A stretch of 64,000 nt of DNA, taken from positions 8,900 to 72,899 of the forward strand of contig CALAYL010000049.1 in the NCBI GenBank assembly GCA_937894725.1, read 5' to 3'. The stretch is from an uncultured Bacteroidota bacterium. Its GTDB lineage: Bacteria > Bacteroidota > Bacteroidia > Chitinophagales > LD1. Under the pieces are notes generated by a model, which did not search any database, had not been told where the DNA came from, and was given only the letters and a program-made list of their open reading frames with translations. How positions within the stretch are numbered: the stretch's first letter is position 1; every line of letters begins with the position of its first letter. Both the position numbers and the translations under genes were made by a program. Positions 10,048 through 63,757 of this stretch are shown here, piece after piece.

Positions 10048-10058
10048 TAAGTAATAAA

Positions 10059-42717: not shown

Positions 42718-45700
42718 TTATTCTTTTGTAAAAGAGATTCGTTGGATGCCTTTTGCTGTTTTTAGTAAAATCATATAGCGAGCTGAACTAAGTGAAGAAA
42801 TATCTACTAGTTCATTTACATGGTCAGATGAAAGAACTTTTCTGCCAACCATGTCCGTTATTTCTAAGGATTTAATAACCTCTGTTGTGGTGATAATAAG
42901 CTTATCACTTGCAGGATTTGGATATATAGATACCGCTATTTCTGTAATATGATTTATCCCTACACCAGTTACATTGGTGATAGCACTAATTCCGCTACAT
43001 CCATTAGCATCCGTTACTTGCACCGTATAGTTGCCATTGGCAGGAGCTGTGTAGCTTTGATTTTCTGCACCGTTTATGTCACTACTGTTCAACTGCCATT
43101 GATAACTAGCAAATGTTTGTGTGCTTAGATCAAAGCCGTTTTGGGTGATGGTCGGTTGTGGTAAGCTGTTCACGGTGAGAGTAAGGGTAACAATACTATC
43201 ACATCCGCCCGATGAGATGAGTGTGTCAAGGTATTGACCTTGTTGCATCAAGGCTTGACCATTGAAGGTAAATGTTTCGCCTTGGCAGATGGCTTTGTTA
43301 ATACTTCCTGTCACAAAAGTATTCACCACCAAGTTAAGTACAATAAAACTATCGCAACCAAATGTAGTTTGCAGTGTATCAAAATACTGTCCAGCTTGGG
43401 TTAAACCTTGTCCATCGAAGTTGTATGACTGTCCGGAGCAGATGCTGGCGTTGATTGTGCTAGTTGGGCTTGGATTTACCACTACTGTAACGCTAGCTGT
43501 ATCAGAACAAGCATTGGCATTAGTTGCTGTAGCAATGTAAGTGGTGGTTTGGGTAGGTGATACTGTTTTTATAGTGCCGCTGCCTAATCCATTGTTCCAA
43601 GCGCCACCAGTACCGCCCGAAACGATAAGCGTAACCGATTCGCCTTGACAAATTACTGCCGCGGCAGGTGAAACTACAGCCACGGGTGCTGTGCGTATGG
43701 TAACCGCTATTGATGCAGTGGCGGTGCAGTTAGCAGCGTTAGCTACGGTGACTGAATAGGTAGTAGCAGCTGTAGGAGTAAAGTTAGCTAGCGCATTATT
43801 ACCTCCGCCATTGCTCCAAGTATAAGTGTCCCCACCAGTAGCAGTGAGTGCAATAGAATTACCAGGGCAAACCGATGGAATTACTGTAGTAATGCCCGCT
43901 GTAGGGTTGGCATTTACAGAGATAGATTTTGTAGCCGTTGCAGAGCAATTGGCTCCAATACTTACGGTAACTGTGTAAGTGGTAGTAGCAGAAGGCGAAA
44001 CAGTAATGTCGGCAGAAGATGCACTAGTACTCCAAGCGTAAGTATTGCCACCATTAGCAGTTAGTGTTACACTACTTCCTGCGCATACCGATGATGGGCC
44101 TGCAATAGTTGCAGTAGGTGCAGATTGCACACTAATCGTTTGAGATGCAGTGGCAGTGCAGTTGCCTGTTCCGGTTACAGTTACAGTATAAGTGGTGTTT
44201 GTAGTTGGTGAGAATGTTGCCGATGCATTGCTTCCTCCACTATTGCTCCATGCATAAGTGCCGCCTCCGCTTGCAGTCAATGTAGCAGATAAGCCCGAAC
44301 AAATAGTTGTAGGTCCGTTAATAGCAACATTTGGAATTGCGTTCACCGTAACTAATCTTGATGCTGTAGCCGAACAGTTGGTAGCGTTGGTAACAGTAAC
44401 AGTGTATGCAGTATTTGCAGTTGGTGAGAACGTTGCCGCAGCATTACTTCCGCCTGAGTTACTCCATGCATAAGCTGTACCACCACTTGCAGTAAGTGTT
44501 GCACTTGCACCATTACAAATAGCCACTGTAGTAGGTGAAATTGCTGCTGTTGGATTGGCATTCACCGTTACTAATCTTGATGCTGTAGCCGAGCAGTTTG
44601 CTGCATTGGTTACGGTTACTGTGTAAGTAGTATTTGTAGTTGGTGAAAAAGTTGCCGCAGCATTGCTTCCGCCCGAATTGCTCCAAGCGTATTGTGTGCC
44701 ACCGCTTACTGTGAGTGTTGCACTTGCGCCATTACAAATAGCCACTGTAGCCGGTGAAATCGCTGCTGTAGGATTTGCATTTACAGTTACCAATCTTGAT
44801 GCTGTTGCTGAACAGTTATTCGCATTAGTTATGGTTACAGTATATGTTGTATTTGTAGTTGGTGAGAACGTTGCCGCAGCATTACTTCCGCCTGAGTTAC
44901 TCCATGCATAAGCTGTGCCACCACTTGCTGTAAGGCTTGCGCTTGTTCCTGAACAAATAGTAGCCGTTGCAGGAGAAATAGTAGCCGTTGGATTTACATT
45001 TACTGTTACTGAACGAACAGCCGTAGCCGAACAATTATTCGCATTGGTTACGGTTACGGTGTAGGTAGTATTGGTAGTGGGCGAGAATGTAGCTGCTGCG
45101 CTATTGCCTCCGCTATTGCTCCAGACAAAAGAAGTTCCCCCACTAGCTGTTAGCGTAGCTGATTGTCCATTACATATAGCCAAAGTAGCTGGAGCGATAG
45201 CTGCTGTAGGTAGCGCATTTACAACTACTGTTACTGCCACCCTTGATGAAGCGCAAGCACCTAAACCTGATTGCACATAGAAAGTTTTGTTGGCCGTTAA
45301 TGCGCCTGTATTAAAGCTTGTGCCACTGCCTAAATTCGTGCCGTTTGTCGGTACATCAAACCAATACAAAGTACCAGAGCCGCTGGCGGTGAGTGTGGTA
45401 GAACTGCCTCTGCACACCGTAAGTGCGGGTGTAACGGTGGTGTTGGTTGGAGCAGAAGCAGGTGTGCTTACTACGTTTACGGTAATTTGTATATAACTAT
45501 AGCATTCCGGCCCCGAAGTAATGGCATCGAAAGTGGTATTAGCCGTTAATATAGGTGTGGTAAGTGTCAAACCTGAAGGAAGTTGTGTAAATCCCTCATA
45601 CCAATCTACACTTGGAGCAGTAGTAGAAACCGATAAAGTGGTAGAAGTACCCGAACAGATAGTAAGATTGCTTGCAGGCGTAGTGTTTACTGGGTTAGCA

Positions 45701-47481
45701 TATTGGTATTTTACATTAATGGTAATAGGAGTTCTTGCTGAATTACCGCAACTACTACCTGCTTCTGCATAATAGGTAAGAGGCGCGGTTTGACCTGGCC
45801 CCGAAGCAATGTTGGGCAAGTAGGGTGTAGTAAACGTTGTACCCGTTCCTAAAACTGTACCTCCACTAGCTTGACTATACCAAGAAATAGTTCCTGTTCC
45901 CGTCACTGTCAACACGGCAGATTGACCAGCACAAATGGTCGTATTACTTGCTGTGGTAGTGTTTGTCGGAGCTGCGGGTATTGCAGCTCCAACAGTTACT
46001 GGTACTGTTACTGCAAAACTACATTGATTGCTACTCGGGTCAATAGCTCTGAAACTGTATGAAGCGTTTGCGTTAAGGACAGGTGTAGTATAACTTGTAG
46101 TTGTACTTAATGTTGTAAATGGAGGTTGATTAAGATACCACTCCACATTAGGGGCATTTGATGTTCCAGTTAATACAGTAGAAGTACCGGCACAAATATT
46201 AAGATTAGCTGGAGGTGTTGTGTTCTGAGCTGAATACTGATAGTTTACAGTTATGTTGATTGGTGTTCTTACCGAAGTGCCACAGCCACTGCTTGCTTCG
46301 GCATAATAGGTAACGGTTGTAGTTTGCCCAGGCCCTGGTGTGTTAGGTAAAGCAGGGGTAGTAAATGTTGTCCCTGTGCCAAGTGATGTTCCACCTGTAG
46401 ATTGGTTGTACCAGTTTACTGTGCCGGTTGCAGTTACTGTAAGATTAGTGGTATTTGTTCCGCATCTGGATAAAAAGAAAGACTGTGTTGCATTTACCGG
46501 TGCAGCAGGCGGAGTTGATGGTGTAATTGTTACGGTAATAGGTACTCGAGCATAAGATCGACAATTTCCTGGACTTCCTGCCTGCTCTACCCAATAGGTA
46601 GTAGTAGTAGTTAAATTAGGTGTAGTAAAAGTTCCGCCAGTAGCTAGTGGATTGCCTCCAACTGAAGTTGGATACCATACTTGCAAGGAATTTGGGTTGC
46701 TTAAACTTAAAGTAGTACTTCCGCCATTGCATACAGATAAATTTGCAACTGGTGTATTACTAGCAGGCGGCACAGCAGTGCAAAGAAAAGGAGTAAGCGA
46801 TATTGCATCGTTATAGTAAAACACATCCTGAATTCTACCCTCAAATTGTTGATCACCAGTCCAAACATTGCCTATTCTGAAAATCCGGTTACTCGTGCCA
46901 TAAGCAATCGAGGTTGTATTTACAGTTGAACTTACAGCCACACCATCTACATAGAGTTGTAAAAGGCCAGAACTGTTTCTTGTGAGTGAAACCAATTTCC
47001 ATGTATTCAAGTAGTTGGCTGAAGTAACAGCTACTATTCCACCCACAAATCCTCCTGTTCTGCGATAACCATATTGTAGATTTAAAACGCCTGCGTTGTT
47101 AGTAAATCGCAGATAAATGTCATTATCCCCCATCGTTAAAATGCTGGATAATCCATTGGTAGGTGTTACTGCATCCATATAAACCCAAGCAGATAAAGTA
47201 AATGTTTGGTTTTGGAAAGGTGTAGGATTGCTAAAATAGTTGTACAAAACAGCATCGGTAGAGCCTTGTCCAAATCGGGTTGATGTGTTTGGTAACGAAT
47301 TTCTGCCAACCTCTTGCGTACAGGCACAACCGGAACTATCTGCATTATAGCCGTTGCCCGAGTAATCTTTGTAGTTGGTATTGCCTAAAGGATAATAGGC
47401 AATCAATCCCGTGGTGGAAATTTGCGCAAAGCTGAGCATAAATGCCATCGTTGCGATCAGTGTAGTCCATAATTTTTTCAT
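42718..47481 (-). CDS. Giant T9SS-sorted adhesin-like protein (LamG/ConA-like lectin domain, ~100-aa Ig-like modules, 8 x ~73-aa repeats, GCDS repeats, type A CTD)
   Basis: The track ORF was trimmed to the Met at 47481 (MKKLWTTLIATMAFMLSFAQ signal peptide). The LamG_3-like region runs LIAYYPL...SAWVY...LYVDG...GRIQDVFYYNDAIS. The C-terminus has IYPNPASDKLII. Confidence 0.9.
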   Translation of the reverse strand: MKKLWTTLIATMAFMLSFAQISTTGLIAYYPLGNTNYKDYSGNGYNADSSGCACTQEVGRNSLPNTSTRFGQGSTDAVLYNYFSNPTPFQNQTFTLSAWVYMDAVTPTNGLSSILTMGDNDIYLRFTNNAGVLNLQYGYRRTGGFVGGIVAVTSANYLNTWKLVSLTRNSSGLLQLYVDGVAVSSTVNTTSIAYGTSNRIFRIGNVWTGDQQFEGRIQDVFYYNDAISLTPFLCTAVPPASNTPVANLSVCNGGSTTLSLSNPNSLQVWYPTSVGGNPLATGGTFTTPNLTTTTTYWVEQAGSPGNCRSYARVPITVTITPSTPPAAPVNATQSFFLSRCGTNTTNLTVTATGTVNWYNQSTGGTSLGTGTTFTTPALPNTPGPGQTTTVTYYAEASSGCGTSVRTPINITVNYQYSAQNTTPPANLNICAGTSTVLTGTSNAPNVEWYLNQPPFTTLSTTTSYTTPVLNANASYSFRAIDPSSNQCSFAVTVPVTVGAAIPAAPTNTTTASNTTICAGQSAVLTVTGTGTISWYSQASGGTVLGTGTTFTTPYLPNIASGPGQTAPLTYYAEAGSSCGNSARTPITINVKYQYANPVNTTPASNLTICSGTSTTLSVSTTAPSVDWYEGFTQLPSGLTLTTPILTANTTFDAITSGPECYSYIQITVNVVSTPASAPTNTTVTPALTVCRGSSTTLTASGSGTLYWFDVPTNGTNLGSGTSFNTGALTANKTFYVQSGLGACASSRVAVTVVVNALPTAAIAPATLAICNGQSATLTASGGTSFVWSNSGGNSAAATFSPTTNTTYTVTVTNANNCSATAVRSVTVNVNPTATISPATATICSGTSASLTASGGTAYAWSNSGGSNAAATFSPTTNTTYTVTITNANNCSATASRLVTVNANPTAAISPATVAICNGASATLTVSGGTQYAWSNSGGSNAAATFSPTTNTTYTVTVTNAANCSATASRLVTVNANPTAAISPTTVAICNGASATLTASGGTAYAWSNSGGSNAAATFSPTANTAYTVTVTNATNCSATASRLVTVNAIPNVAINGPTTICSGLSATLTASGGGTYAWSNSGGSNASATFSPTTNTTYTVTVTGTGNCTATASQTISVQSAPTATIAGPSSVCAGSSVTLTANGGNTYAWSTSASSADITVSPSATTTYTVTVSIGANCSATATKSISVNANPTAGITTVIPSVCPGNSIALTATGGDTYTWSNGGGNNALANFTPTAATTYSVTVANAANCTATASIAVTIRTAPVAVVSPAAAVICQGESVTLIVSGGTGGAWNNGLGSGTIKTVSPTQTTTYIATATNANACSDTASVTVVVNPSPTSTINASICSGQSYNFDGQGLTQAGQYFDTLQTTFGCDSFIVLNLVVNTFVTGSINKAICQGETFTFNGQALMQQGQYLDTLISSGGCDSIVTLTLTVNSLPQPTITQNGFDLSTQTFASYQWQLNSSDINGAENQSYTAPANGNYTVQVTDANGCSGISAITNVTGVGINHITEIAVSIYPNPASDKLIITTTEVIKSLEITDMVGRKVLSSDHVNELVDISSLSSARYMILLKTAKGIQRISFTKE
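43477..45220 (-). repeat. Tandem array of eight ~218-bp coding repeats (Ig-like, Cys-pair)
   Basis: Units resemble NANPTAAISPATVAICNGASATLTASGGTAYAWSNSGGSNAAATFSPTTNTTYTVTVTNAANCSATASRLVTV. The central copies are nearly identical at the protein level. Confidence 0.9.
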
Positions 47482-47606
47482 AATTTTTAAGTTTTGTCTA
47501 GTGCAAAAGTGCACTTCGAATTCATTGAATTTCCACTCAACTAACGAGCTACGTGTAGCCGATGTACGAAAGTGCCATTTGGGTGTACGAAAGTGGTTTT
47601 TGGGCA
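47482..47606 (-). promoter_or_regulatory. Conserved upstream cassette, copy 1: 21-bp-phased direct repeats plus a -7-like box
   Basis: Plus-strand TGTACGAAAGTG occurs at 47563-47574 and 47584-47595. A CACTTTTG (-7-like) box lies at 47504-47511 on the gene strand. Only a few mismatches separate it from copies 2 and 3 over the distal half. Confidence 0.7.
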
Positions 47607-47641
47607 AGAAAAATCCCGACACTTTTGTAGCATCGGGATTT
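47604..47641 (-). terminator. Intrinsic terminator of the 47660..49540 gene
   Basis: AATCCCGA/TCGGGATT stem followed by TTTTTCTTG on the minus strand. Confidence 0.75.
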
Positions 47642-47659
47642 TTTATTGAGAATTAAATA

Positions 47660-49540
47660 TTAGTTACCAACTGTCAATCGCTTTACGCTGCGCTGACCTT
47701 CTACCTCTACCGATACTAGATATACGCCTTTAGCGAAGTTAGATACGTTGATAGTTTCACGCTCCGATGGATTCACTAATTCAAAAGCTACTTTACCTAG
47801 CATATCTATGATTTTTACGCTAGATGCTTTTTCAGCAATTTCTAATGTTACAATAGTATTTGCTGGATTCGGATATAAATTGAAATCAAACCCACCCGTA
47901 GCTTCTTTGATACCTACTGACCCTGGTGTAAACTGAGCACAGGCTGATTGTGTAGAGCAAAATCCCTTTTCAATTTTTACAAATGCATTAGTGCTTTGGG
48001 CAAGTACTACACTTTGTGTGGTACCTGCTGCCAATGGCTGATTAGTAGCGCAATTTACCCACTCATAGCTTGCTGCATCTGCAATATTTGCGGTGAGGCC
48101 TGTAGCTGTAGCGCTTGCGGTAGCAGGACAAGCAGCAAAAGTATGCTTGGAAAAGAACGCACAGCTTTGACCAGGTTTATCAGCCGCATAAATAGACTCA
48201 GCTGTACCTAAATTTAAATCAACAGTATCTGTCGAAAAACGACCCACCGACAACACCTCATCGTTGATTACTTTTACGCTATTGAAAAAGCCACTGGCTT
48301 TTGCTTTCAAATCTGCTACACCCGAAAACTGCCCGCCTTTTGTTAACTTCAGAATGAATGGTGTGTTGATATTAGGTCTAATTAAATTGTTCACTGCTGT
48401 AGAGTCAGGATTGAAATCAACCGTGTCTTTGTAGTAACCGCTTGCATATATATTGCCACTTTTGTCTAACATTATTCTTTCAGTAGTGTTTGCTCCTGTG
48501 CCTACTAACTGCTTTGCCCATTGAGCCACACCAGCAGCATTGTATTTAATGATAAATGCGTTTATCACATCTGGTGAATTAAGTGATAGGCTTGCACCAA
48601 AATCAACAGGGAAGGTGCATCTAAAAAAACCAGAAAAATAGACGTTGCTAGCTTCATCTGTAGTAACACACGTGCCACTGCTGAGATAATCACATCTAAA
48701 GCTTTTGATATACCCATAACTTCCAGTGCTATTAATTTTTAATAAATAAGGCTGACTGTTAGAAAAATTAGAATTAATAACCTGACTAGAATTGGCGGGA
48801 TTGTAGTATAAAGTACCATTATAGCTGCCCGTCAAATACACATTACCAGCAGTGTCTATTGTAAAGTCATTTCCTGAAACTTGGCTACTGCCAGGATTCG
48901 CAGTTATAAAATATTGCCAACTAGAACTTGCGCTTGATTTTATGACTACTTCTGCCTTGGCTCCGCTAATGGAAAAATCTCTAAAGTTGTAGTATAATGC
49001 TCCATCTTTATCTTGTTTGAGTTTCCCAAAAGTTTGAGTTCCAGCTGCTGGTTGTGCAGCAACGGTTACATATTGCCCTGCAGGATTTAATCTCAAAATA
49101 AACCAATCACCTCCATTAGATGTAACTAACTGGTCGGCAACACCCGGATCAAAGTCAGCTGTACCAGCAAAATCACCACCGATTAAAACGTCTTGGCTGG
49201 GGCGCACAATCACAGATTTCGCAATCACACCTGAATTGCCTTGAATTAGTTTTGCCCAAAGAAGGTCTCCAACATTGCTGTACTTGGCCACAAATGCTGC
49301 AAGACTGCCATCAGGGCTTAATTGGGTAACTCCTGCTTTAATATCCATATCTACCGTGTCGCCATTTCCGATTGTTCCCACTACGTAATAATTCCCAGAG
49401 CTGTCTCTGTCAATATCATAAATAAACGGTTGATTAGATCCTGTAGTTTGAAATAGCCCTCCCCATTTAAAATCGAGGTCTTGTGCAAATGCGAAGGCGC
49501 TAAGCACCATCGCTGTCATGAATGTAATTGTCTTTTTCAT
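47660..49540 (-). CDS. T9SS-sorted protein with SBBP-type beta-propeller repeats
   Basis: The track ORF was trimmed to the Met at 49540 (MKKTITFMTAMVLSAFAFAQ). It has repeated D..GN.Y..G.F.GT.DFDP motifs and a C-terminal LYPNPANTIVTLE sorting domain. Confidence 0.88.
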   Translation of the reverse strand: MKKTITFMTAMVLSAFAFAQDLDFKWGGLFQTTGSNQPFIYDIDRDSSGNYYVVGTIGNGDTVDMDIKAGVTQLSPDGSLAAFVAKYSNVGDLLWAKLIQGNSGVIAKSVIVRPSQDVLIGGDFAGTADFDPGVADQLVTSNGGDWFILRLNPAGQYVTVAAQPAAGTQTFGKLKQDKDGALYYNFRDFSISGAKAEVVIKSSASSSWQYFITANPGSSQVSGNDFTIDTAGNVYLTGSYNGTLYYNPANSSQVINSNFSNSQPYLLKINSTGSYGYIKSFRCDYLSSGTCVTTDEASNVYFSGFFRCTFPVDFGASLSLNSPDVINAFIIKYNAAGVAQWAKQLVGTGANTTERIMLDKSGNIYASGYYKDTVDFNPDSTAVNNLIRPNINTPFILKLTKGGQFSGVADLKAKASGFFNSVKVINDEVLSVGRFSTDTVDLNLGTAESIYAADKPGQSCAFFSKHTFAACPATASATATGLTANIADAASYEWVNCATNQPLAAGTTQSVVLAQSTNAFVKIEKGFCSTQSACAQFTPGSVGIKEATGGFDFNLYPNPANTIVTLEIAEKASSVKIIDMLGKVAFELVNPSERETINVSNFAKGVYLVSVEVEGQRSVKRLTVGN

Positions 49541-49665
49541 ATTGTTTAAATTTTGTTTACTGCAAAAGTGCATTTCGATTTCTATGAAATACCGCCCAAC
49601 TAACGAGTTCCGTGTAGCCGATGTACGAAAGTGCCTTTTGGGTGTATGAAAGTAGTTTTTGGGCA
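49541..49665 (-). promoter_or_regulatory. Conserved upstream cassette, copy 2
   Basis: TGTACGAAAGTG at 49622-49633 and TGTATGAAAGTA at 49643-49654, a 21-bp period. The distance to the ATG (82 nt) is the same as in copy 1. Confidence 0.7.
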
Positions 49666-49731
49666 AAAAAAATCCCGCCTCCATTACTGAAAGCGGGAAA
49701 ACAAAATCCACCTTATGAAAAAATGGATTTT
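49664..49731 (-). terminator. Terminator region of the 49749..51245 gene (two hairpins)
   Basis: AAATCCA/TGGATTT at 49704-49730 and TCCCGC/GCGGGA at 49673-49698, the latter followed by T8 on the minus strand. Confidence 0.7.
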
Positions 49732-49748
49732 TTTTAGAGTAGTTTATG

Positions 49749-51245
49749 CTATTTACCTACTATCAATTTACGCGATGCGTTTTCGTTTTTGCTTTGTATT
49801 TTCACGATATATAATCCTGTATTAAAATCAGCTACAGAGATAGTCATTTTATTGCCTTCAAGTTGTTTTTCGAATACTATTTTGCCTACTAGATCTGTGA
49901 TAATCACCATAGCATCTTTCGCATCTGTTTCTAATAAAAATGTGCCTACTGCTGGATTAGGATATACCGATAACTTACTTTCACGAATGGCTTGTATTCC
50001 ATTAGGAGTAGCAGCTCTTCCACATACATACTCTTCTCTAGTTACCGAACTAAATCCACCTTGATTCACATTGAAACCAGTCCTAGTTTCGATAGCCACT
50101 AGGTCATCATCTGTGTTGAATTCATAGAGTGTCTCATTTACAGGTAGCAATGTAGGATTCGTACCAATACTGAATGTCGCAAATCTAGCCAATTTGCCAG
50201 AGGCGGAATAATTTCTTACCTCTTCGTAGGTAGTAGAAAACTGCATGGTTGTTTTATTATAGGTTTTGTTGCTTTTGCGTGTTTCTTGATTGGAAGTATT
50301 GTATGCATACTCTATTCTTGACTCATTCTGTAATGTAGGTGGATTACCTGGCGTACTTTGTTGAAGCGTTTGCTTAGTTATGCTGCTTACATTTCCATTC
50401 GCATCGTATGCGTAGAAGCTTTGCTCGACTGTTGTCCAAGTTCCTTGATTAATAGATACAAATGTACCAGCGATTTTGCCATTAGACCAAGTAGTTCCAA
50501 ATCGAATGGTAGCTGTGTATGCTGAACCATTCCAGTCTCTTCCTTCCCTTTGTGTTTCATTATTGTTAGCGTCATAGGTATAGGCAAATTGCTGCCCGTT
50601 GGTATAGGTCATAGTACCTTGATTGTAGCCAAAGTTGGTTAAGGTTGACACCTTGTTATTGGCATTATAAGTTCTTTCTTCCTTACTGTTCGGTATCCAT
50701 GCACCGCTAGACCATCCGAAAAATTCTTTTTTAGTTTCGTTTTGCGAGGCATCATAAGTGTATTCAACTTTATTGTTATTTACGCCCTGTAGTTTTACTA
50801 TTGCAGATGCAACCTTTCCTTGTGTAGTGTATGTGTAGGAAATTCTAGCATTTTCTTCCCAGATGCTTGATGAGGGATTCCAAGTAGAAGAAATAGTATC
50901 TACAAGATTAGCACCTGTATAGCTATTTTCGTATTTCTTAGAGTTGTCCCAAGCGCTTGTTCCTGCATTAAAAAGCTGTTCTAAATAAACAAGTACTTTA
51001 TTATTGGAATTGTATGTAATAGTCTTTAATCGGTTATTGTTCCATGTACCGCTGTTATTGATTTGCCTAAGCTCTGTTAGCTGGTTGCCTTGCGCATCAA
51101 AAGTACTTATATTACGCGCTGTTTGGGTTTTTGCTCCGCCAGCCGGAATGTTGTAAAAATTCACCGTATCCTTTCTGCAGTCTGCAAAAGATTGGGTGGT
51201 CAGTAATAATGCCGCTGAGGCAAGAACGAGTAGTTTCTTTTTCAT
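49749..51245 (-). CDS. T9SS-sorted protein with degenerate YD-like repeats
   Basis: Trimmed to the Met at 51245 (MKKKLLVLASAALLL). It has repeated ..Y(T/A)YDAN.N......W motifs and a C-terminal VYPNPAVGTFLLE sorting domain. Confidence 0.85.
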   Translation of the reverse strand: MKKKLLVLASAALLLTTQSFADCRKDTVNFYNIPAGGAKTQTARNISTFDAQGNQLTELRQINNSGTWNNNRLKTITYNSNNKVLVYLEQLFNAGTSAWDNSKKYENSYTGANLVDTISSTWNPSSSIWEENARISYTYTTQGKVASAIVKLQGVNNNKVEYTYDASQNETKKEFFGWSSGAWIPNSKEERTYNANNKVSTLTNFGYNQGTMTYTNGQQFAYTYDANNNETQREGRDWNGSAYTATIRFGTTWSNGKIAGTFVSINQGTWTTVEQSFYAYDANGNVSSITKQTLQQSTPGNPPTLQNESRIEYAYNTSNQETRKSNKTYNKTTMQFSTTYEEVRNYSASGKLARFATFSIGTNPTLLPVNETLYEFNTDDDLVAIETRTGFNVNQGGFSSVTREEYVCGRAATPNGIQAIRESKLSVYPNPAVGTFLLETDAKDAMVIITDLVGKIVFEKQLEGNKMTISVADFNTGLYIVKIQSKNENASRKLIVGK

Positions 51246-51368
51246 GGTATATAAATTTTGTTTCCGCAAATGTCATTCTAAGGGATTGGAAATTTTTGCT
51301 CAACCAACGAGTTACGTGTGGCAGATGTACGAAAGTGCCATTTGGGTGTACGAAAGGGATTTTTTGGA
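51246..51368 (-). promoter_or_regulatory. Conserved upstream cassette, copy 3
   Basis: TGTACGAAAGTG at 51326-51337 and TGTACGAAAGGG at 51347-51358, a 21-bp period. The 33-nt core at 51324-51356 is identical to 47561-47593. Confidence 0.7.
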
Positions 51369-51426
51369 GATACCTCATAAAAAGCCATCAAAAAAGAAGA
51401 ATTTTAGAAAACATTACACATAAAAA

Positions 51427-51491
51427 CGTTAATTCAGTCAGTACACTGACTGAATTAACGTAAATTTGGTCAGTCTATTGACTGAATTTAC
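51427..51491. repeat. Left ~65-bp double-hairpin element flanking the AAA+ ATPase gene
   Basis: A perfect palindrome CGTTAATTCAGTCAG-taca-CTGACTGAATTAACG at 51427-51460 is followed by an imperfect palindrome at 51460-51491. The element is the reverse complement of 52667-52730. Confidence 0.85.
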
Positions 51492-51517
51492 AAAAAAAAT
51501 AGCTTACGTAGATTTCA

Positions 51518-52654
51518 TTAAGCCAAAAAATCAAGTAGCGTATCTTGACTCACGCAACTAAACTTTGCTTTAGGATAATTCTCTTCAAAAAACTTTGGTG
51601 GTTTTACGCCCTTGCATTTTTTCCATTTAAACTCAAAGGCGCGTAGCTGCCTACTTTCTGTTTCTATCATGTCTATCTCTTGATTGTCATACGTTCGCCA
51701 AAAGAAATACTCAGGTGTTTTGGCAGCATATTCACGTACTTTTATCCGCTCATAAAAACAGTAGTTTTCCCACAAAACTCCCATGTCGTTGCGCGAATTT
51801 ACTTCTCTAAAATCATTGATCACAGCATTGCGAATCCCATTATCATAAAAATACCACTTAGATGATTTCACTACCTCCTTGCGTAGATTGGAGCTATAGC
51901 CCCCTACCCTAAAAATCACAAATACTTTGGATAGCAAATCAAGATAACGCACCACCGTATTTTTGCTCATGCCTAGATTTCTGCCTAGTTCATCTAGCGA
52001 TACTTCATTACCCACTTGATAGGCTAGTAGCTTTAGTAGGTCGAAAATCTTACTCGCATTTTTTACAGTTTCATACATCAAAATATCTTTGAGTAAATAG
52101 GTCTGCACCAATGACTTTAAATAGTCCTCTTTCTCGTCATTGCCAGTGAGGGTGATCAACTCTGGATAGCTGCCATATATTAATCGCTCTTGTAGCTGCT
52201 GCTGCGCGCCAAGATGCCCTACATACCCTTCTACCTCCGCATATGACACAGGATAAAGGGTGTATTGATAGCTACGCCCAGTGAGCGGCTCGCCCGATTT
52301 ATTCATCAAGTCAAACGAAGATGAACCAGTAGCAATAATCGTGATTTTAGGAAAGCTGTCAATCATAAATTTGAGGTGCGTGCCTATGGCTGGCACTGCC
52401 TGAGCCTCATCTATCATGATAAGTTTATGCTTGCCGATTAGTCGTTTGTAATTTGCAGCTGTTCGATTAGTAATAGTTGCTTGTACATCCAAATCTTCTG
52501 CATTAAGTACCAAGCAGGGCTTACGATAGTTTTGCTGTATGGCTTGCAGTAGCTTGGTTTTGCCCACTCTGCGTGTGCCAAAAAGTAGCAATACTTTGTT
52601 GTCACCGATGCGCTTTTCGATTGCTTTTTGGAGCTGTCTTTTGATATCTTTCAT
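51518..52654 (-). CDS. AAA+ ATPase of the AAA_14/DUF4143 family
   Basis: 378 aa with Walker A GTRRVGKT, Walker B LIMIDEAQ, a central wHTH-like segment (KNTVVRYLDLLSKVF) and a C-terminal EIDMIE...EFKW module (nuclease-fold-like). Confidence 0.85.
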   Translation of the reverse strand: MKDIKRQLQKAIEKRIGDNKVLLLFGTRRVGKTKLLQAIQQNYRKPCLVLNAEDLDVQATITNRTAANYKRLIGKHKLIMIDEAQAVPAIGTHLKFMIDSFPKITIIATGSSSFDLMNKSGEPLTGRSYQYTLYPVSYAEVEGYVGHLGAQQQLQERLIYGSYPELITLTGNDEKEDYLKSLVQTYLLKDILMYETVKNASKIFDLLKLLAYQVGNEVSLDELGRNLGMSKNTVVRYLDLLSKVFVIFRVGGYSSNLRKEVVKSSKWYFYDNGIRNAVINDFREVNSRNDMGVLWENYCFYERIKVREYAAKTPEYFFWRTYDNQEIDMIETESRQLRAFEFKWKKCKGVKPPKFFEENYPKAKFSCVSQDTLLDFLA

Positions 52655-52666
52655 ACTTCAAATATA

Positions 52667-52730
52667 CCCAAAAATGTTAATTCAGTCAGTCTGTTGACCA
52701 AATTTACGTTAATTGAGTCAGTTGGCTGAC
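52667..52730. repeat. Right ~65-bp double-hairpin element flanking the AAA+ ATPase gene
   Basis: An imperfect palindrome at 52667-52698 is followed by TTAATTGAGTCAG-ttgg-CTGACTGAATTAA at 52700-52729. This is the mirror order of the left element. It starts 12 nt upstream of the ATPase start codon. Confidence 0.85.
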
Positions 52731-52802
52731 TGAATTAAGAAAATAATCGCATTTAATCCCTTTATACATTTCCATTTTTAATTATATTCGTCCAAACATA
52801 GT

Positions 52803-54668
52803 ATGAGTCAAATGATGCTACTGACAGCTACCAGCACCCTAGAACGGCTCAATACTTATATTGTGGCTAGGGAATACGACTTTGCGTTAAAGCAACTCAC
52901 CCTACTCTCCCACCAAAATCTACATCTGTTAAAACAGCTAATACAACAGCTTGCAAACGACCCCCAAATAAAGGAGTTGTGTTTCCGACTACAAATAAAA
53001 CTCTACCTGTCAGAGCAATCACTAAATGAGCAAAAAATAGAAGATGCCGAAAAACAACTGACCCAAATAATAAAACAAGCAGGTGAATGTGAGTGTACAG
53101 AAGTATTGATATTAGGGTATTTGCAGCTAGCTGTGCTAAAGTCATACCAACAAAAAGAAACAGAAGCGCTTGCGATTTTTGCTCAATGCGACCAACTATC
53201 AACTACCCTAAAATCTGTAGAAATCGATATACAAATAGCCATCTACCGCTACCATTTTTATTCTGAAAGCGATGCAGGTAAAGCTGGCAAACAGCTCTAT
53301 CATGCCCTACAACTAAGCCAGGAGACGAAGTTAGATTACTGGCAGGCATACTGTTTGTTGCACTTGGGAACACTTAACACAGTATTAGGAAACCACTCCG
53401 TGGCGCTCAATTTTTTTAAAGAGGCGCATACACTTTTTGAACAACTTGGCTGCAATTTATCAATGGCTGATAATTTGATGTGTCAGTTTAATATCTACTA
53501 TCGTCAAAAAGAATTTGAACAAGCTATCCAGTGTTTGAAGCAGGCAATAGCTTTAGCTACTGACTGTGGATGGGAACACAAAATTGCACTATGCTATGGT
53601 AATTTATCTACCGTGTATTTGCAATTAGAAAAATACGATGAAGCTGCCAATGCATCTGAAAAAGATATTCAAATAAGTACCAAGCTGAAAAACAAGCAAA
53701 ATGTAGGCGTAGCTTACTTTAGGTTGGGCAGAATAGAAGCCGCCAAAGGAAATACATCCAAAGCCATAGAGCTATTAAAGGACTCTATCGAAATCCGAAA
53801 AAATCAGATTAGCAATACACAACTTTCACAGGTATATTTTCACCTACATCGGCAATACGAAATTATAAGCGATTTTGAAAATGCATACAAAACGCAGTCG
53901 CTGTACTTGGAGCAGAAGTTTAAAATTTTGGATGCCGAAAAAGCAAAAGAAAACGAAGCCTTGAGAGAAAAGTATGAATCCGAAAAAAGAGAGACAGAAC
54001 TCAAAGAAGCTAGGATTCTACAAACAGAAAGTGAACTAAAAGCATTAAAGGCACAGATGAATCCGCATTTTATTTTTAATGCGTTGAATTCGATTCAAGA
54101 AATTTTCTTTTTGGGTGACAAGCGATTAGCCAATAAACACCTCAGCAACTTTAGCCAACTGACTCGAAAAATTCTGCACGCTTCTACCAAATCATCTATC
54201 ACACTCCAAGAAGAAATTGAAACCCTAGAGCAATACCTATCACTAGAAGCCCTACGCTTTTCGGATAATTTTGAGTATGATTTAAGAATAGACGAAAACA
54301 TAGACCCTTACCTCATAGACCTACCACCCATGCTGCTACAGCCCTTTGTTGAGAATGCTATAAAACATGGCTTGATGCACAAAACGGAAAACCGTAAACT
54401 AGCCATCGCTATGAGCTTGAAGGAAGAAACTGACGAAACAGCTATTTTGAAAGTAAGCATCAAAGACAATGGCGTAGGACGTGCTGCCTCCACTGTTATC
54501 AATGCCCAAAAAGCCCGCATTGGTCAGTCGTTTGCGAGCGAGGCTACTGAAAAAAGACTTTCGTTATTAAATCTAAGTAGCGATGAATCGGTGAGCTATA
54601 TAGACCTCGAAGAGGCTGGCATGCCAGCTGGCACAGAAGTGCAAATTTCAATACCCATAAAATTTTAA
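52803..54668 (+). CDS. Soluble TPR-repeat sensor histidine kinase (LytS/His_kinase PF06580-type plus HATPase)
   Basis: 621 aa with ~380 aa of TPR-like repeats and a coiled coil (EKAKENEALREKYESEKRETELKEA). The kinase part has LKAQMNPHFIFNALNSI (phospho-His) and LLQPFVENAIKHG. I could find no TM segment. Confidence 0.85.
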   Translation: MSQMMLLTATSTLERLNTYIVAREYDFALKQLTLLSHQNLHLLKQLIQQLANDPQIKELCFRLQIKLYLSEQSLNEQKIEDAEKQLTQIIKQAGECECTEVLILGYLQLAVLKSYQQKETEALAIFAQCDQLSTTLKSVEIDIQIAIYRYHFYSESDAGKAGKQLYHALQLSQETKLDYWQAYCLLHLGTLNTVLGNHSVALNFFKEAHTLFEQLGCNLSMADNLMCQFNIYYRQKEFEQAIQCLKQAIALATDCGWEHKIALCYGNLSTVYLQLEKYDEAANASEKDIQISTKLKNKQNVGVAYFRLGRIEAAKGNTSKAIELLKDSIEIRKNQISNTQLSQVYFHLHRQYEIISDFENAYKTQSLYLEQKFKILDAEKAKENEALREKYESEKRETELKEARILQTESELKALKAQMNPHFIFNALNSIQEIFFLGDKRLANKHLSNFSQLTRKILHASTKSSITLQEEIETLEQYLSLEALRFSDNFEYDLRIDENIDPYLIDLPPMLLQPFVENAIKHGLMHKTENRKLAIAMSLKEETDETAILKVSIKDNGVGRAASTVINAQKARIGQSFASEATEKRLSLLNLSSDESVSYIDLEEAGMPAGTEVQISIPIKF

Positions 54669-54670
54669 CC

Positions 54671-55411
54671 ATGCGTGCTATTCTCGTAGATGATGAACAA
54701 AAAGCCAGAAACATGTTGCGCAACTTGCTCGAAGAGTACTGCCCATCCATAGAGATATTGGCAGCGTGCGAAAATGTACCTACCGCAGTGGCGGCTATTC
54801 ATGAGCACAGACCCGATGTCGTTTTCTTAGATATAGATATGCCTGGCTACAATGGTTTTCAGCTCTTAGAGTTTTTTAGCCCTATAAATTTTGAGGTTAT
54901 TTTCACTACTGCATTTAGTGAATATGCATTGAAAGCATTTCAAGTAAGCGCACTAGATTTTTTACAAAAACCAATAGATATAGACCTGCTCATAGCTGCG
55001 GTAGAGAAATTGAAAAAGCGAAAAGGCCAGTCTTTTATCAATCAACAAATGGCTTTGATAAAAGAAAACAATGAGGCAAAAGCAGTAAAAAAGATAGCGA
55101 TTCAAGTAGCCGATGGAATTGTATTCTTGAAAGTAAAAGAAATCTTATACCTAAAAGCAGACCGCTCCTATACAGAAATATACCTAGAGAATAGCGAAAT
55201 AATAATAGCCAGCAAAAATATCAAAGAATTTGATGAAATATTAGCAGGAAATCCCGACTTTCTGCGTGTACAACGCAGTTATATAGCCAATCTGACCAAA
55301 GTAGAAAAGTATAACAGAACAGATGGTGGCACACTCCAAATACAAGGAGGAAATGAAATACCTATTAGCAAAGAGGTAAGAGAGGAAGTACTGAAGAGGT
55401 TAGAGATTTAA
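54671..55411 (+). CDS. LytTR-family response regulator (REC plus LytTR DNA-binding domain)
   Basis: 246 aa with receiver motifs (DDE ... VVFLDIDMPGYNG ... TAF) and a C-terminal LytTR pattern (YLKADRSYTEIYL ... FLRVQRSYIANL). Confidence 0.92.
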   Translation: MRAILVDDEQKARNMLRNLLEEYCPSIEILAACENVPTAVAAIHEHRPDVVFLDIDMPGYNGFQLLEFFSPINFEVIFTTAFSEYALKAFQVSALDFLQKPIDIDLLIAAVEKLKKRKGQSFINQQMALIKENNEAKAVKKIAIQVADGIVFLKVKEILYLKADRSYTEIYLENSEIIIASKNIKEFDEILAGNPDFLRVQRSYIANLTKVEKYNRTDGGTLQIQGGNEIPISKEVREEVLKRLEI

Positions 55412-60013: not shown

Positions 60014-60116
60014 GATCGTAATTTTTGTTTGATACAAAATTCACAATATGAAAGAAAAGACTACTATACCAATTCACGAAACCCCCATTTTAAGTTCATG
60101 AATGGAAAATGATTTA

Positions 60117-60869
60117 CTACTTCCCTATTCTTATCTCCTGAAAACTATCTTCAAATTCTTTTTTTCGCTCTTTGGAAATAGGCAAAGAAACTCCATTTTC
60201 CATCACCAAAGATGAATCAAGGCGATTGTATTTTTTGATGAAATTTAGATTGATGATAAACGAGCGGTGTATTCTGAAAAAGTTTTTTCGCTTAGTCAAA
60301 TGCTCTTCAAAAAACTTGATTTTTTTACTGACCAAAAGTGTTGACCCATCTTTCAAAAAAACGTTGGTATAGGCGCCATCAGCCTGAAGTACACTCAGTT
60401 TATTTATCTCTACAAACAACAATCCATCTAAAACAGGAAGTGCTATTTTCGTGAATTCGTCTGCTTTTAGATTTTGTTGGAGTACTTGCAATCGTTCTAA
60501 ACTCGACTTCGCTTCTAGGTTGTCGTTCACTTTCTGTACTGCACTTTTTAGTTTATCTATCTGTACAGGTTTGAGCAGATAATCTATAGCCGAAATCTCA
60601 AATGCCTGTATAGCATACTCACTATATGCAGTCACAAACACTACTTCAAAATTTATGCTATCAAAAAACTTTACTAGTTCAAACCCATTAAAATCAGGCA
60701 TCTCCACATCTAAGAAAACAAGGTCTGGCTTGAATGCTTTGATAGCCAAAACAGCCTTGGGCACATTTTCTACCAAAGCCACCAACTCTACTTCGGGGCA
60801 ATATAGCTGGAGCATTTTTTGGAGTGAACCCCTTGCCCTACTTTCATCATCTACTATGATTGCTTTCAC
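60117..60869 (-). CDS. LytTR-family response regulator
   Basis: 250 aa with LVFLDVEMPDFNG in the receiver domain and a LytTR C-terminus (LQADGAYTNVFL ... FFRIHRSFIINL). A 4-nt overlap joins it to the upstream kinase gene. Confidence 0.92.
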   Translation of the reverse strand: MKAIIVDDESRARGSLQKMLQLYCPEVELVALVENVPKAVLAIKAFKPDLVFLDVEMPDFNGFELVKFFDSINFEVVFVTAYSEYAIQAFEISAIDYLLKPVQIDKLKSAVQKVNDNLEAKSSLERLQVLQQNLKADEFTKIALPVLDGLLFVEINKLSVLQADGAYTNVFLKDGSTLLVSKKIKFFEEHLTKRKNFFRIHRSFIINLNFIKKYNRLDSSLVMENGVSLPISKERKKEFEDSFQEIRIGK

Positions 60870-63757
60870 ACTTTGTCTGATTTTTGTGGTATGATTAATC
60901 GCACTATCGTCCCTTCTACTTTGTCTATAGTTTCGATAGTGATGGCTAAGTTAAAATACTCATTTAATAATCGCAATCTATCTGAGGTAGCACTGGTGCC
61001 AAAACTTTTGTGATTGACTCTCCGTTTGTTTATTTCTGCAGATGCAGCTCTGCCCACTCCATTATCTTCTACTTCACATACCAAATTAGCATCTACTTCT
61101 TTGAAGGTAATTTGCAATTTCTTTTGCCCTTTTTTATGCAAAAGCCCATGCTTCAAGGCATTTTCTACCTGTGGTTGCAAAATCATAGCAGGTAGCTGAA
61201 CACAAGACGCATCTATACTCTCGGGTAAAATTATTTCATAATTCATCTCCTCACCAAAGCGCAGTTTTTCGAGCGAAAGATAAAGCGACAACATCTCTAT
61301 TTCGGTTTCTAATGAAACAAAATCAGCCCCAGAAGCCTCCAATACTTTTCGAGTGAGTTCGCTAAAAAGCCCTAAATATCGCTGTGCATTTTCTGTGTCT
61401 TGCTCAAGGACCAAATCTTGTATAGAGTTGAGGGCATTAAACATAAAGTGAGGATTCATCTGCGATTTGAGGGCAGTGAGTTGGGATACTGCTAATCGCT
61501 TTTCAATTTCATTTTTTCGTTGAATAGTTTGGATTCTTCGCCAAACAAAGAATCCTACAACAGCCAAGACCAAGAAAAACAAACTCAAATAAAACCACCA
61601 CTGTTGCCAAAAAGGTTTTAAAATAACAATGTTGATAGCGGCCGATTGCTCACTTTCTATACCATCTTCATTGAGTGCCTTCACTTCAAAAAAATACCTA
61701 CCAGCAGGTAGCGTAGGATAGCGAGCAAAATTACTTTGACTAGTCGTAAAAACCCATGTGGTATCTAAACCCAAAAGCCTGTATTTATAACGAAAAGAGC
61801 CATGACTTTTAAAGGCTATTCCCTTAAACGTAATATGCAAATTGTTTTGCGCATAGCTAAGCGTATAGCTTTTTTGAAGGCTGGTATCCTTATCCTTTAT
61901 CGCAAAAGAAGAAATGAAAATAGAAGGCGCTATTTTGTTGATGGCATCCCATTTTTTAGGCATAGAAACTAAGCCTTTAGCAGTAGCTAAATACACTTCA
62001 TTATCAGAAAAAGCAATATCGGAAATATCGGTAGTAGGAAGTCCATCGAAGCGATTGTATGCTATGTGTTCTTTCGTTTTTGTGTTATAGGAAATTAGAT
62101 TTTCAGCTGTAACTATCCATAATGTATTTCCGTCTGCACCGAGCTTAAAAGCACTTTGTTTAGCCCCTTCTTTCATGATAGGCAGCGAATTTATTAGCCT
62201 ACCATTATTAAATCCTAGCACGCCATTCTTCATAGTGCTTATCCATACTTTCCCGTCTGATGTAGCTTTTATATCCGTGCCAAAAACTATTTTTCCATTA
62301 TACAAAATCAATTCCGTTTTATCATTTACAGAAGTCCATAATCCATCGGAGCTGCATCCCCAACTTCGCTTGCTTTCTTTTTCATAAAACACCACGTTAG
62401 TTCTGATATTTCTAATACTGTGTAGCTCTTGGATAATTGGCGAAATAGAACAGCTAAAGGCATTGAGAACAGAGCCCATCAAAAAATCGCCTTTCCCAAT
62501 CTCACTAAATGATTTGATATTGCTGATGCCGAGAATGGCTGTTGGCTTTAAAGTGAGAGCATCTACCATCCAAGTACGCTGTTTGCCTACCAAGATTCTT
62601 CCTTCCAATTCATCATAGCTCAATGCTTGTATCTCATCCGTGCTATTATTGACTTGGCAATGTTTGATTTCTTTGTTTTCTAAGTTATACTTAGACAAGA
62701 TACCGTTATGAAAACCTAGCCACAAATTTCCGTTTTTATCTTTGATTATTTTCTTGACACGGGTATCGGGCAATGGTGAGTTTTTATCAGTATAAACCCG
62801 AACTGCGATATTCGGCACTACAAACAAACCCTCTTGTAATGTACTAAACCAATAGTTTCCTTCTTTGTCTTGAATCACATCAGTCACACTTTTAGCAGGA
62901 AAAAAAAGTTGTCCATCATATAACTCTCTCCACAATGTATCAAAACACAAGGCACCACTGCTACCTCCCACCCAGAGCTGATTATTCCCTACTATTGAAA
63001 GTGAAATAATCCTACCCAATGTGTTTGACAAATCCTTCACTTTTATCAAATTATCGTTGGCGATTTTCCAGATTATGTTTCTATTATTAAACTTTGAAAT
63101 GAGATATACCGCATCACCTAATACTTTTAGATGCGAATTGTAAGAGACCTCCATCCAGTCTTGTTTACTTACATTGATTAGTTTCCTTTCTTGCGTTTTG
63201 ACATCAAAAAATCCTATGCTTGTCTTACCTATAAAATAAATTTTGTTTTGTGCATAGGCAATATCCATCAACTCATTATCGATAGATTGATTTGATGAAG
63301 AAAGTAAATTGAACGTTCCTTTTTTGTTTTGTACATAGACTCCACTATCACCCGTTATATACAACTGAGATTTATCATCAAATTGGAAAGTTGGAAAGTT
63401 GCTTTTCTTTGAACTCCAATCTACTGTCAGTTTTAATGAATCCTTTTGTACAGAAAAAATCTGCCCTGAAAAGTTTTGACACCAAAGTTTTTTATCCTTT
63501 GTGAGGGTAAGATGTGATATGGCTTTGCCGCCTTTTGCATTAGTTTCAAAAGGGATAAAATCAGTACCATCGAATCGAAAAAGCCCAGCATTTGTACCTA
63601 ACCAAATGAATCCATATTCATCTTGAAGCAAGTCATATACTTCATCAGTAGGCAGACCACTATCGTCATTGATAGCATAGTAATACGGATGTTGCGAAAA
63701 CAAAGGGATGCTCAAAAGCAAACAATACAAAAATCCAAAAACATTTCGCTTTCGCAT
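60866..63757 (-). CDS. Sensor histidine kinase with periplasmic two-component-regulator propeller repeats and a Y_Y_Y domain (LytS-type kinase core)
   Basis: 963 aa with a signal peptide, repeated W.GT..GL propeller motifs and a Y_Y_Y-like YKYRLLGLDTTW...GRYFFEVKA segment. One TM helix (WWFYLSLFFLVLAVVGFFVW) is followed by LKSQMNPHFMFNALNSI and LQPQVENALKHG. Confidence 0.9.
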   Translation of the reverse strand: MRKRNVFGFLYCLLLSIPLFSQHPYYYAINDDSGLPTDEVYDLLQDEYGFIWLGTNAGLFRFDGTDFIPFETNAKGGKAISHLTLTKDKKLWCQNFSGQIFSVQKDSLKLTVDWSSKKSNFPTFQFDDKSQLYITGDSGVYVQNKKGTFNLLSSSNQSIDNELMDIAYAQNKIYFIGKTSIGFFDVKTQERKLINVSKQDWMEVSYNSHLKVLGDAVYLISKFNNRNIIWKIANDNLIKVKDLSNTLGRIISLSIVGNNQLWVGGSSGALCFDTLWRELYDGQLFFPAKSVTDVIQDKEGNYWFSTLQEGLFVVPNIAVRVYTDKNSPLPDTRVKKIIKDKNGNLWLGFHNGILSKYNLENKEIKHCQVNNSTDEIQALSYDELEGRILVGKQRTWMVDALTLKPTAILGISNIKSFSEIGKGDFLMGSVLNAFSCSISPIIQELHSIRNIRTNVVFYEKESKRSWGCSSDGLWTSVNDKTELILYNGKIVFGTDIKATSDGKVWISTMKNGVLGFNNGRLINSLPIMKEGAKQSAFKLGADGNTLWIVTAENLISYNTKTKEHIAYNRFDGLPTTDISDIAFSDNEVYLATAKGLVSMPKKWDAINKIAPSIFISSFAIKDKDTSLQKSYTLSYAQNNLHITFKGIAFKSHGSFRYKYRLLGLDTTWVFTTSQSNFARYPTLPAGRYFFEVKALNEDGIESEQSAAINIVILKPFWQQWWFYLSLFFLVLAVVGFFVWRRIQTIQRKNEIEKRLAVSQLTALKSQMNPHFMFNALNSIQDLVLEQDTENAQRYLGLFSELTRKVLEASGADFVSLETEIEMLSLYLSLEKLRFGEEMNYEIILPESIDASCVQLPAMILQPQVENALKHGLLHKKGQKKLQITFKEVDANLVCEVEDNGVGRAASAEINKRRVNHKSFGTSATSDRLRLLNEYFNLAITIETIDKVEGTIVRLIIPQKSDKV

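Follow-up and report, generated by a model that had tools for sequence, protein, structure and literature searches.

A phased direct-repeat cassette upstream of three type IX secretion cargo genes, a probable LytTR-type activator operator in an uncultured Bacteroidota bacterium

Three cassette copies and their promoter geometry

The stretch of DNA analysed here, 64,000 nucleotides of contig CALAYL010000049.1 from an uncultured Bacteroidota bacterium (hereafter the window), carries three consecutive minus-strand genes for type IX secretion system (T9SS) cargo proteins, each of them preceded by a copy of the same non-coding cassette of about 125 nt, built on phased direct repeats, which is the subject of this report. 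According to Pfam, cargo A (42718..47481) encodes a protein of 1587 aa with LamG, Ig_7 and Por_Secre_tail domains, cargo B (47660..49540) a protein of 626 aa with SBBP and Por_Secre_tail, and cargo C (49749..51245) a protein of 498 aa with DUF3836 and Por_Secre_tail. PF18962 scores above cutoff in all three proteins, each of which starts with an MKK...hydrophobic N-terminus, and an independent gene caller placed the same ATG starts for the three genes. The original prediction, from which this work departs, held that the three downstream proteins are unrelated, and BLASTP bears this out, as the C-terminal sorting domain is all that they have in common.

The three blocks proposed in front of these genes are confirmed by alignment, and all are read on the minus strand. 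On the combined evidence of alignment and gene domains, copy 1 (47482..47606) lies upstream of cargo A, with its ATG at 47481; copy 2 (49541..49665) lies upstream of cargo B (ATG 49540), and copy 3 (51246..51368) upstream of the DUF3836-like cargo C (ATG 51245). Each cassette has two near-perfect boxes, also written CTTTCGTACA. In copy 1 both the distal box (47584..47595) and the middle box 21 bp from it (47563..47574) read CACTTTCGTACA; in copy 2 the distal box is TACTTTCATACA (49643..49654) and the middle box again CACTTTCGTACA (49622..49633); in copy 3 they are CCCTTTCGTACA (51347..51358) and CACTTTCGTACA (51326..51337), respectively. These elements had been described as a 12-nt direct repeat with a 21-bp period, and the box positions and variants stand as given; the repeated unit is instead the whole 21-mer CCCAAAnnnCACTTTCGTACA, present with a 21-bp period in all three copies and consisting, within each cassette repeat, of a 10-nt invariant core, CTTTC[AG]TACA, and an 11-nt spacer. 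The 33-nt core attributed to the cassettes is indeed identical at 47561-47593 and 51324-51356, with 2 mismatches at 49620-49652. Elsewhere in the 64 kb the 12-mer recurs with at most one mismatch only at 35509, inside a coding region, which is a chance match.

The earlier description had also missed a third, degenerate box, CTCGTT[AG]G, which lies 22 bp past the second box in every copy and whose sole variation is A or G at position 7, with G in copy 3. It reads CTCGTTAG at 47541..47548 in copy 1 and at 49600..49607 in copy 2, and CTCGTTGG at 51304..51311 in copy 3. Both this promoter-proximal box and the -7-like element described below should be taken as predicted features, recognised from geometry and comparison.

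About 125 nt can be aligned across the three blocks, with an overall identity of 86% between copies 1 and 2 and of 70% for either pair that includes copy 3. The 56-nt segment that runs from the first to the third box is 88-93% identical in all three copy pairs; the 27-nt linker that follows is 70% identical between copies 1 and 2 and 33% identical between copy 3 and the others, with its length unchanged, and the segment from the -7-like element to the ATG shows 63-83% identity between copies. Copies 1 and 2 have in common even the 3' half of the upstream terminator. That a terminator precedes each block had been claimed for all three, and holds for copies 1 and 2, directly upstream of which intrinsic terminators are found, whereas copy 3 is preceded by an 84-nt palindromic repeat element instead, which recurs on the far side of the neighbouring ATPase gene. 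The sigma-70 scan used here is unsuited to Bacteroidota promoters; its promoter matches were therefore ignored and its terminator calls alone were used.

In Flavobacterium, the -7 element TAnnTTTG spans positions -12 to -5, and the -33 motif is generally weak (PMC6847099). Measured against that consensus, a -7-like element can be recognised on the minus strand of each cassette, CACTTTTG in copy 1 (47504..47511, starting 30 nt before the ATG) and in copy 2 (49563..49570), and GACATTTG in copy 3 (51267..51274), in all cases beginning 29-30 nt before the ATG of the cassette gene. Both versions keep five of the six near-invariant positions (T-12, A-11, T-8, T-7, T-6 and G-5), the absent one being T-12. 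The third box ends exactly 29 nt before this nAnnTTTG in each cassette, and the proximal strong box ends 80-81 nt before each ATG, in agreement with the constant repeat-to-ATG distance previously noted. A -7-like box lacking a good -33 TTTG had also been proposed near each ATG, and reading the sequence we likewise see no TTTG about 19 nt upstream of the -7 element in any of the three copies. The lack of T-12, combined with the missing -33 TTTG, fits a weak promoter that needs an activator. On the published numbering of the -7 element, the boxes would lie at about -92/-85, -71/-64 and -49/-42, with a predicted leader of about 18 nt.

LytTR systems of the window and its relatives

Two LytTR two-component systems accompany the cassettes. 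The first (52803..55411, plus strand) consists, by Pfam domains, of HK1 (52803-54668), a kinase with TPR and LytS-type His_kinase domains, and RR1 (54671-55411), a response regulator with REC and LytTR domains; the second (60117..63757, minus strand) consists of HK2, with Reg_prop/Y_Y_Y and His_kinase domains, and RR2 (60117-60869), again with REC and LytTR. Their vicinity had been pointed out before, and they are in fact found 1.4-12 kb from the cassettes and hold the sole LytTR domains of the window. Directly downstream of RR2 lies a further T9SS cargo gene, cargo D (55466-60013), and in front of it is a putative sister operator, TTCATGAA-N14-TTCGTGAA (60073..60102, minus strand), which has a 22-bp period and lies 30 nt before GAATTTTG. 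The boxes, spacer and position of this site are conserved in three related loci (L104, L105 and L106; related loci are referred to by L numbers throughout). Within the 64-kb window, box pairs are found at the three cassettes and at cargo D alone: there is none upstream of the neighbouring 1721-aa T9SS cargo gene (37376-42541), and no autoregulatory pair upstream of HK1 (52655-52802) or HK2 (63758-64000).

The window matches metagenome contigs, including NODE_231 of ENA ERZ795037, and the sources of related proteins assign these to Chitinophagales. In every related island examined, LytTR genes have box pairs of the same or a closely related kind beside them, and LytTR-linked pairs were recorded in L003, L004, L009, L016, L090, L102, L104-L107 and L109. 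The islands have a recurrent gene order, in which RR1 and HK1(TPR) are divergent from a T9SS cargo gene and are followed by HK2 (Reg_prop/Y_Y_Y), RR2 and a large T9SS cargo gene. The LytTR regulators of these islands fall into three families, which we call RR1, RR2 and RRa.

In the RR2 family, the gene downstream of RR2 is preceded by TTCRTGAA-N14-TTCRTGAA with a conserved CAAAACAGGGG-like spacer in 4/4 genomes, and the LytTR domain is 68-74% identical between genomes, against 65-68% for the receiver, so that operator and DNA-binding domain are both conserved. Given that this pair is found downstream of RR2 in all four genomes, the operator of RR2 seems accounted for, and the site at 60073-60102 is probably that of RR2.

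In the RR1 family, on the other hand, box sequences differ between genomes. The cargo gene divergent from HK1 has a 21-bp pair that meets our scan pattern in L104-L106, whereas in L090/L092 and in L093 three weaker boxes can be read by eye at the divergent cargo gene. The ortholog of cargo B in L090/L092, which adjoins the RR1 ortholog, has nearly the same N-terminus as cargo B, and its three boxes are colinear with the window cassette. When RR1 of the window (54671-55411) is compared to its L090 ortholog (10001-10744), identity is 47% in the LytTR domain and 82% in the receiver domain; L093 (10001-10744) was compared as well, and in this family the LytTR domain diverges much faster than the receiver.

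The RRa family comprises LytTR regulators paired with a Reg_prop kinase and 66-73% identical at the protein level. In these loci the RRa gene itself is preceded by two TTTCGTAAA boxes at 20-21 bp (L090 5185-5213, L102 3087-3115, L107 9931-9958 and L109 9949-9977). In L090, L107 and L109 the pair is found about 42 nt before the ATG of the RRa gene; in L102, where it occupies the intergenic region between HK and RRa, the distance is about 150 nt. The pair looks like an autoregulatory site. In L090 a TTTCGTAAA pair is also found upstream of a DUF3836-type T9SS cargo gene, and its flanks are those that resemble the window cassette most closely. We rejected the notion that this DUF3836 protein is a proven ortholog of cargo C, as the two are 21% identical, and refer to them as members of the same family in a syntenic island.

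The geometry of the cassette can be set beside that of the relatives. There, the distance from the end of the box pair is 29-30 nt to nAnnTTTG and 58-61 nt to the ATG, whereas the strong pair of the window cassettes ends 51 nt (29 + 22) before the -7-like element and 80-81 nt before the ATG, that is, one period more; the degenerate third box fills the slot that is taken in relatives by the end of the box pair. At four independent Bacteroidales loci (L012, L015, L016 and L071) the exact pair ends exactly 39 nt before a canonical TAnnTTTG, and in two of the four a TTTG is present as well, with the canonical spacing of N19. Between the gaps of 29, 39 and 51 nt the differences are approximately whole helical turns, which places the boxes on roughly the same helix face. 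A separate observation is that the -7-like elements behind the box arrays read [G/C]AnnTTTG and not TAnnTTTG, at the three cassettes (47504-47511, 49563-49570 and 51267-51274), at cargo D (60035-60042) and in L090 and L104-L106; the absent T-12 may be a hallmark of this class of activator-dependent promoter.

A box motif, TTC[AG]T[AG][AC]A twice with a period of 20-22 bp and no more than one mismatch, was derived from the window alone. It gave 19 matches (14 distinct sites) in the 215,869 bases of the window and its relatives, compared to 1.84 +/- 1.38 in shuffles, where the highest count was 6. Of the 14 sites, thirteen either precede a T9SS cargo gene or lie between genes of LytTR two-component systems, and the other one (L102 13-41) faces off the locus edge. 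Ten sites lie outside the window: 7 before T9SS cargo genes that adjoin LytTR systems, 2 between a kinase and its LytTR regulator, and the one at the locus edge.

The stricter pattern CTTTCRTACA-N11-CTTTCRTACA was run on one genome per species, for 185,579 species, and returned 17 loci, 9 of which have 21-bp tandem arrays, in assorted phyla, and 8 of which are two-copy loci. LytTR genes adjoin half of the latter (4/8). In L003 the motif begins 37 nt past a REC-LytTR gene, in L004 it lies 133 nt upstream of a stand-alone LytTR gene, in L016 a stand-alone LytTR gene is found about 1 kb downstream on the same strand, and in L009 (Desulfobacterales) the motif heads an operon for a membrane protein, a LytS-type kinase and a LytTR regulator. 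The L016 pair precedes a short open reading frame (ORF) with a signal-peptide-like start (MKARQILFIAIAAL...), upstream of the LytTR gene, and these two genes could form a module for peptide signalling. Units of 21 bp that include CTTTC[AG]TACA were seen in long tandem arrays in L005, in L011 (Prevotellaceae), in L006, L007/L042, L010 (Sporosarcina), L014 (Pseudarthrobacter) and L038, and at many metagenome loci; the Prevotellaceae unit is ACTTTCGTACATGTACGGAAn, present 6 or more times. A single 10-mer in the unit is enough for a 21-bp tandem repeat to be matched, so that such arrays across taxa are probably for the most part due to chance.

Some further features of the island deserve mention. 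Cargo D is mosaic-like, in that it resembles cargo B in its N-terminal SBBP part (29% identity) and cargo A in its C-terminal 1040 residues (52% identity); the last ~320 residues of the 1721-aa cargo (37376-42541) are also in common with that group, at 60% identity. Between cargo C and HK1, a gene for an AAA_14/DUF4143 ATPase (51518-52654) is flanked by two copies, 75-84% alike, of an element of 64-84 nt (51415-51498 and 52663-52746) that forms a pair of hairpins, and the ATPase gene has the look of a gene cassette whose insertion parted HK1 from the cargo genes that it faces in relatives. HK2, finally, is a single 963-aa ORF in the window (60866-63757), as opposed to an 832-aa kinase and a separate 123-aa ORF on the ERZ795037 contig (L018 16196-19079), and RR2 of that contig is 99%, not 100%, identical to RR2 of the window, so that the two assemblies are close relatives without being the same.

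The operator reading and its alternatives

We consider it probable that the cassette is a complete LytTR-type activator operator joined to a promoter for the main Bacteroidota sigma factor, propagated to three genes, with RR1 as its favoured regulator. LytTR sites consist of two repeats of 9-11 nt that are 11-13 nt apart and share no consensus (PMC4847170); at the cassettes we find repeats of 10-12 nt with a 21-bp period, and linkage to LytTR genes. The original prediction had voiced concern over the mismatch between the repeat and the classical LytTR consensus, which is not an objection because no consensus common to LytTR sites exists. Its central proposal, that an operator or upstream activating sequence places the T9SS cargo genes under one regulator, probably a LytTR protein, is supported by the architecture of the cassette, its linkage to LytTR genes, the fixed distance to the -7-like element and the box-centred pattern of conservation.

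If this reading is correct, a phosphorylated response regulator with a LytTR domain would bind the phased boxes cooperatively, as a multimer. The three phased boxes lie on one face of the helix and are followed, 29 nt on, by the weakened -7-like element, [C/G]AnnTTTG, and the bound regulator would recruit RNA polymerase to this poor core promoter, so that one signal would switch on cargo A, B and C together, with an upstream terminator insulating each cargo gene from its neighbour. The regulator would be RR1, working with HK1, the LytS-type kinase that contains TPR repeats (52803-55411), and the presence of the cassette module before the three genes would be due to copying in this lineage, or to homogenisation by gene conversion. 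RR1 is favoured because of synteny, the colinear three-box layout and the 21-bp period; in relatives, in fact, the HK1/RR1 ortholog pair sits divergently beside such cargo genes.

Several observations weigh against this interpretation. The third box fits just 5/8 positions of the pattern, and the -7-like element of the cassette departs from the consensus at T-12. The closest relative box, TTTCGTAAA with CCAAAT..GG and CGGCT flanks (78% over 36 nt), belongs to the RRa family, of which the 64-kb window has no ortholog, RR1 and RR2 being just 41-44% identical to RRa. In relatives, no box pair could be detected at several of the T9SS cargo genes that lie near LytTR systems (L100, L102, L107 and L109), and the species scan found no three-copy locus among GTDB species representatives. 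A LytTR gene was near none of the 66 metagenome loci with the generic box pair; these loci are mostly 21-bp tandem arrays or ORF-poor, eukaryote-like DNA, and the metagenome pair scan is uninformative, since its pattern is matched by every 21-bp tandem repeat with the 10-mer in it. A metagenome scan with the cassette core TTTCGTACA-N6-ACACG-N3-CTCGTT had no match, in a collection that is incomplete for this organism, as the JGI contig L019, which contains the core, was not recovered.

A serious alternative, which we nonetheless regard as unlikely, is that the cassette is the same LytTR-type operator with an RRa-like regulator encoded elsewhere in the genome, an ortholog of the RRa family, while RR1 and RR2 control other targets. 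RRa loci do carry their TTTCGTAAA boxes twice upstream of the RRa gene itself, and the pair at the L090 DUF3836 cargo gene matches the cassette in spacer and flank (CCAAAT.GG, CGGCT), with boxes that differ at one position. Against this alternative, all six strong boxes of the window have ACA and not AAA, and the window lacks an RRa ortholog. Furthermore, the cassette is colinear, in its layout of three boxes, with the operator beside the RR1 ortholog in L090/L092, and by synteny the cassette-bearing genes occupy the place of the cargo gene that is divergent from HK1.

It is improbable that the cassette serves a transcription factor of another family and that its LytTR neighbours are a coincidence of island structure. 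The islands do hold further regulators, such as the OmpR-type and GerE-type response regulators in L093 and L107, but a factor of this kind is disfavoured because the box pairs track LytTR genes across three paralogous families and in distant taxa, including different orders and phyla; moreover, direct repeats of 9-12 nt with a period of 20-22 bp are the published LytTR signature. We find it highly improbable, too, that the copies are recently duplicated non-coding DNA, promoter and leader included, similar by recent origin or gene conversion and with no dedicated regulator site. Such an origin would agree with the 86% overall identity of copies 1 and 2, which extends to the 3' half of the upstream terminator, but the uneven identity of copy 3, at 88-93% in the boxes versus 33% in the linker, is not a pattern that a merely recent duplication would give, and in other species, whose flanking DNA has diverged, there are homologous box arrays that keep this geometry.

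We likewise assign a very slight probability to the cassette encoding a structured 5' leader or a small RNA that acts after transcription. The hairpin that RNAalifold proposes has 10 pairs over TCGGCTAcACG...CGTTAGTTGA; copy 3 shows one compensatory change in it (T-A to C-G), and the CGGC...GTTG arms occur in L090 too. Against this, the three copies have z-scores for folding of -0.37, -0.20 and +0.25 (-1.28, -1.03 and +0.11 for the proximal parts of 80-81 nt), the covariation term is -0.55 kcal/mol, with a double change in 2/21 pairs among 3 sequences only, and the stem depends on G-U pairs. The predicted -7 element is downstream of the hairpin, which would thus not be in the mRNA, and the terminators just upstream argue against read-through. 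At gathering score Rfam 15 has no match over the window, and on the conserved boxes none at E up to 10; a few low-scoring matches over the upstream terminators touch no more than the first 1-3 nt of copies 1 and 2.

Lastly, the CGTA of the repeats resembles some -10 motifs of extracytoplasmic function (ECF) sigma factors, whose promoter consensus has xxAAC at -35 and CGT at -10, 16-17 nt apart. The idea that the repeats are ECF -35/-10 elements, or iterons or recombination sites of a mobile element, which could appeal to the many 21-bp tandem arrays with CTTTCRTACA in unrelated taxa, is hardly credible and was rejected on geometry and on the fixed relation to the primary-sigma -7 element: reading the sequence against the ECF consensus, no AAC is present at 16-17 nt upstream of either CGTA, the boxes of relatives are of the TTCATGAA type, partly palindromic and at a fixed distance to that -7 element, there are two or three boxes only, always beside a gene start, and the tandem arrays are largely expected by chance.

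We tentatively extend the argument to the island as a whole. It is plausible, if short of probable, that the window holds one example of a conserved adhesin island, apparently of Chitinophagales, in which paralogous LytTR systems (RR1, RR2 and RRa) would each control adjacent T9SS cargo through an operator of their own, made of co-evolving TTCRTxxA phased boxes at a fixed, helix-phased distance from the promoter, and that one such module was copied here in front of three unrelated cargo genes, uniting them into a single regulon, while the DNA-binding domain of RR1 diverged much faster than its receiver (47% vs 82%). If true, this would be a natural case of a regulon that grows as a promoter cassette is propagated and regulator and operator co-evolve, and T9SS cargo expression would have a first cis-regulatory code.

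Comparison with known systems

The E. coli regulator YpdB, a LytTR protein, is among the nearest parallels. Its operator in the yhjX promoter is a direct repeat of GGCATTTCAT (PMC4847170). The likeness extends to two direct repeats of about 10 nt, with the core TTTCAT in YpdB sites and TTTC[AG]T in the cassette; to the pairing of a REC-LytTR regulator with a sensor of the LytS type (His_kinase PF06580), an arrangement that in the case of the cassette is predicted from the genes; and to cooperative binding at two sites upstream of the promoter, which for the cassette is proposed from its sequence. The YpdB site reportedly also has an 11-nt spacer and hence the same 21-bp period as the cassette. 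The two systems differ in that they belong to different phyla, with a -10/-35 promoter for YpdB and a -7 TAnnTTTG element for the cassette, and in that the YpdB target is a transporter whereas the cassette precedes T9SS cargo genes; the cassette, furthermore, has three boxes, its module is present in three copies, and the sensors of its island have TPR or Reg_prop/Y_Y_Y domains.

AgrA, ComE, PlnC/D and VirR of the Firmicutes, which are LytTR regulators of quorum-sensing and virulence regulons, bind just upstream of the -35 region, are commonly autoregulated and act mostly on genes for secreted products. Their sites resemble the cassette in their paired repeats of 9-11 nt, spacers of 11-13 nt and lack of a shared consensus, and the layout of the RRa-family loci in relatives recalls their autoregulation. 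In contrast to these systems, no peptide pheromone or HPK10-type kinase is evident here and the box sequence is another one; the cassette is found in a Gram-negative host of the Bacteroidota, and its targets use the T9SS.

In Bacteroidota, where LytTR two-component systems are very numerous, the known regulation of the T9SS (PorXY-SigP) concerns, to our knowledge, the machinery and not the cargo, and we know of no phased direct-repeat operator for that cascade. PorY-PorX-SigP is reported to control T9SS genes in Porphyromonas gingivalis (PMC4800418), and the effector domain of PorX is PglZ-type and not LytTR (PMC9757075). The likeness here is that of a two-component system tied to type IX secretion in Bacteroidota, and the difference is that PorY-PorX-SigP acts on secretion-machinery genes through an ECF sigma factor, whereas the cassette would be an operator on the cargo genes themselves. 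In the literature searched we found no LytTR operator in Bacteroidota, no defined regulon and no LytTR regulon of T9SS cargo.

If confirmed, the operator described here would show by what means environmental Bacteroidota turn on their adhesin-like surface proteins jointly, and the motif TTC[AG]T[AG][AC]A at 21-22 bp, fixed to a -7 element, could be used to predict LytTR regulons across the phylum. Its layout is one already known from LytTR sites; what sets it apart is the use of three boxes, their helix-phased placement, the three-copy module in front of unrelated genes, and an apparent co-divergence of regulator and operator.

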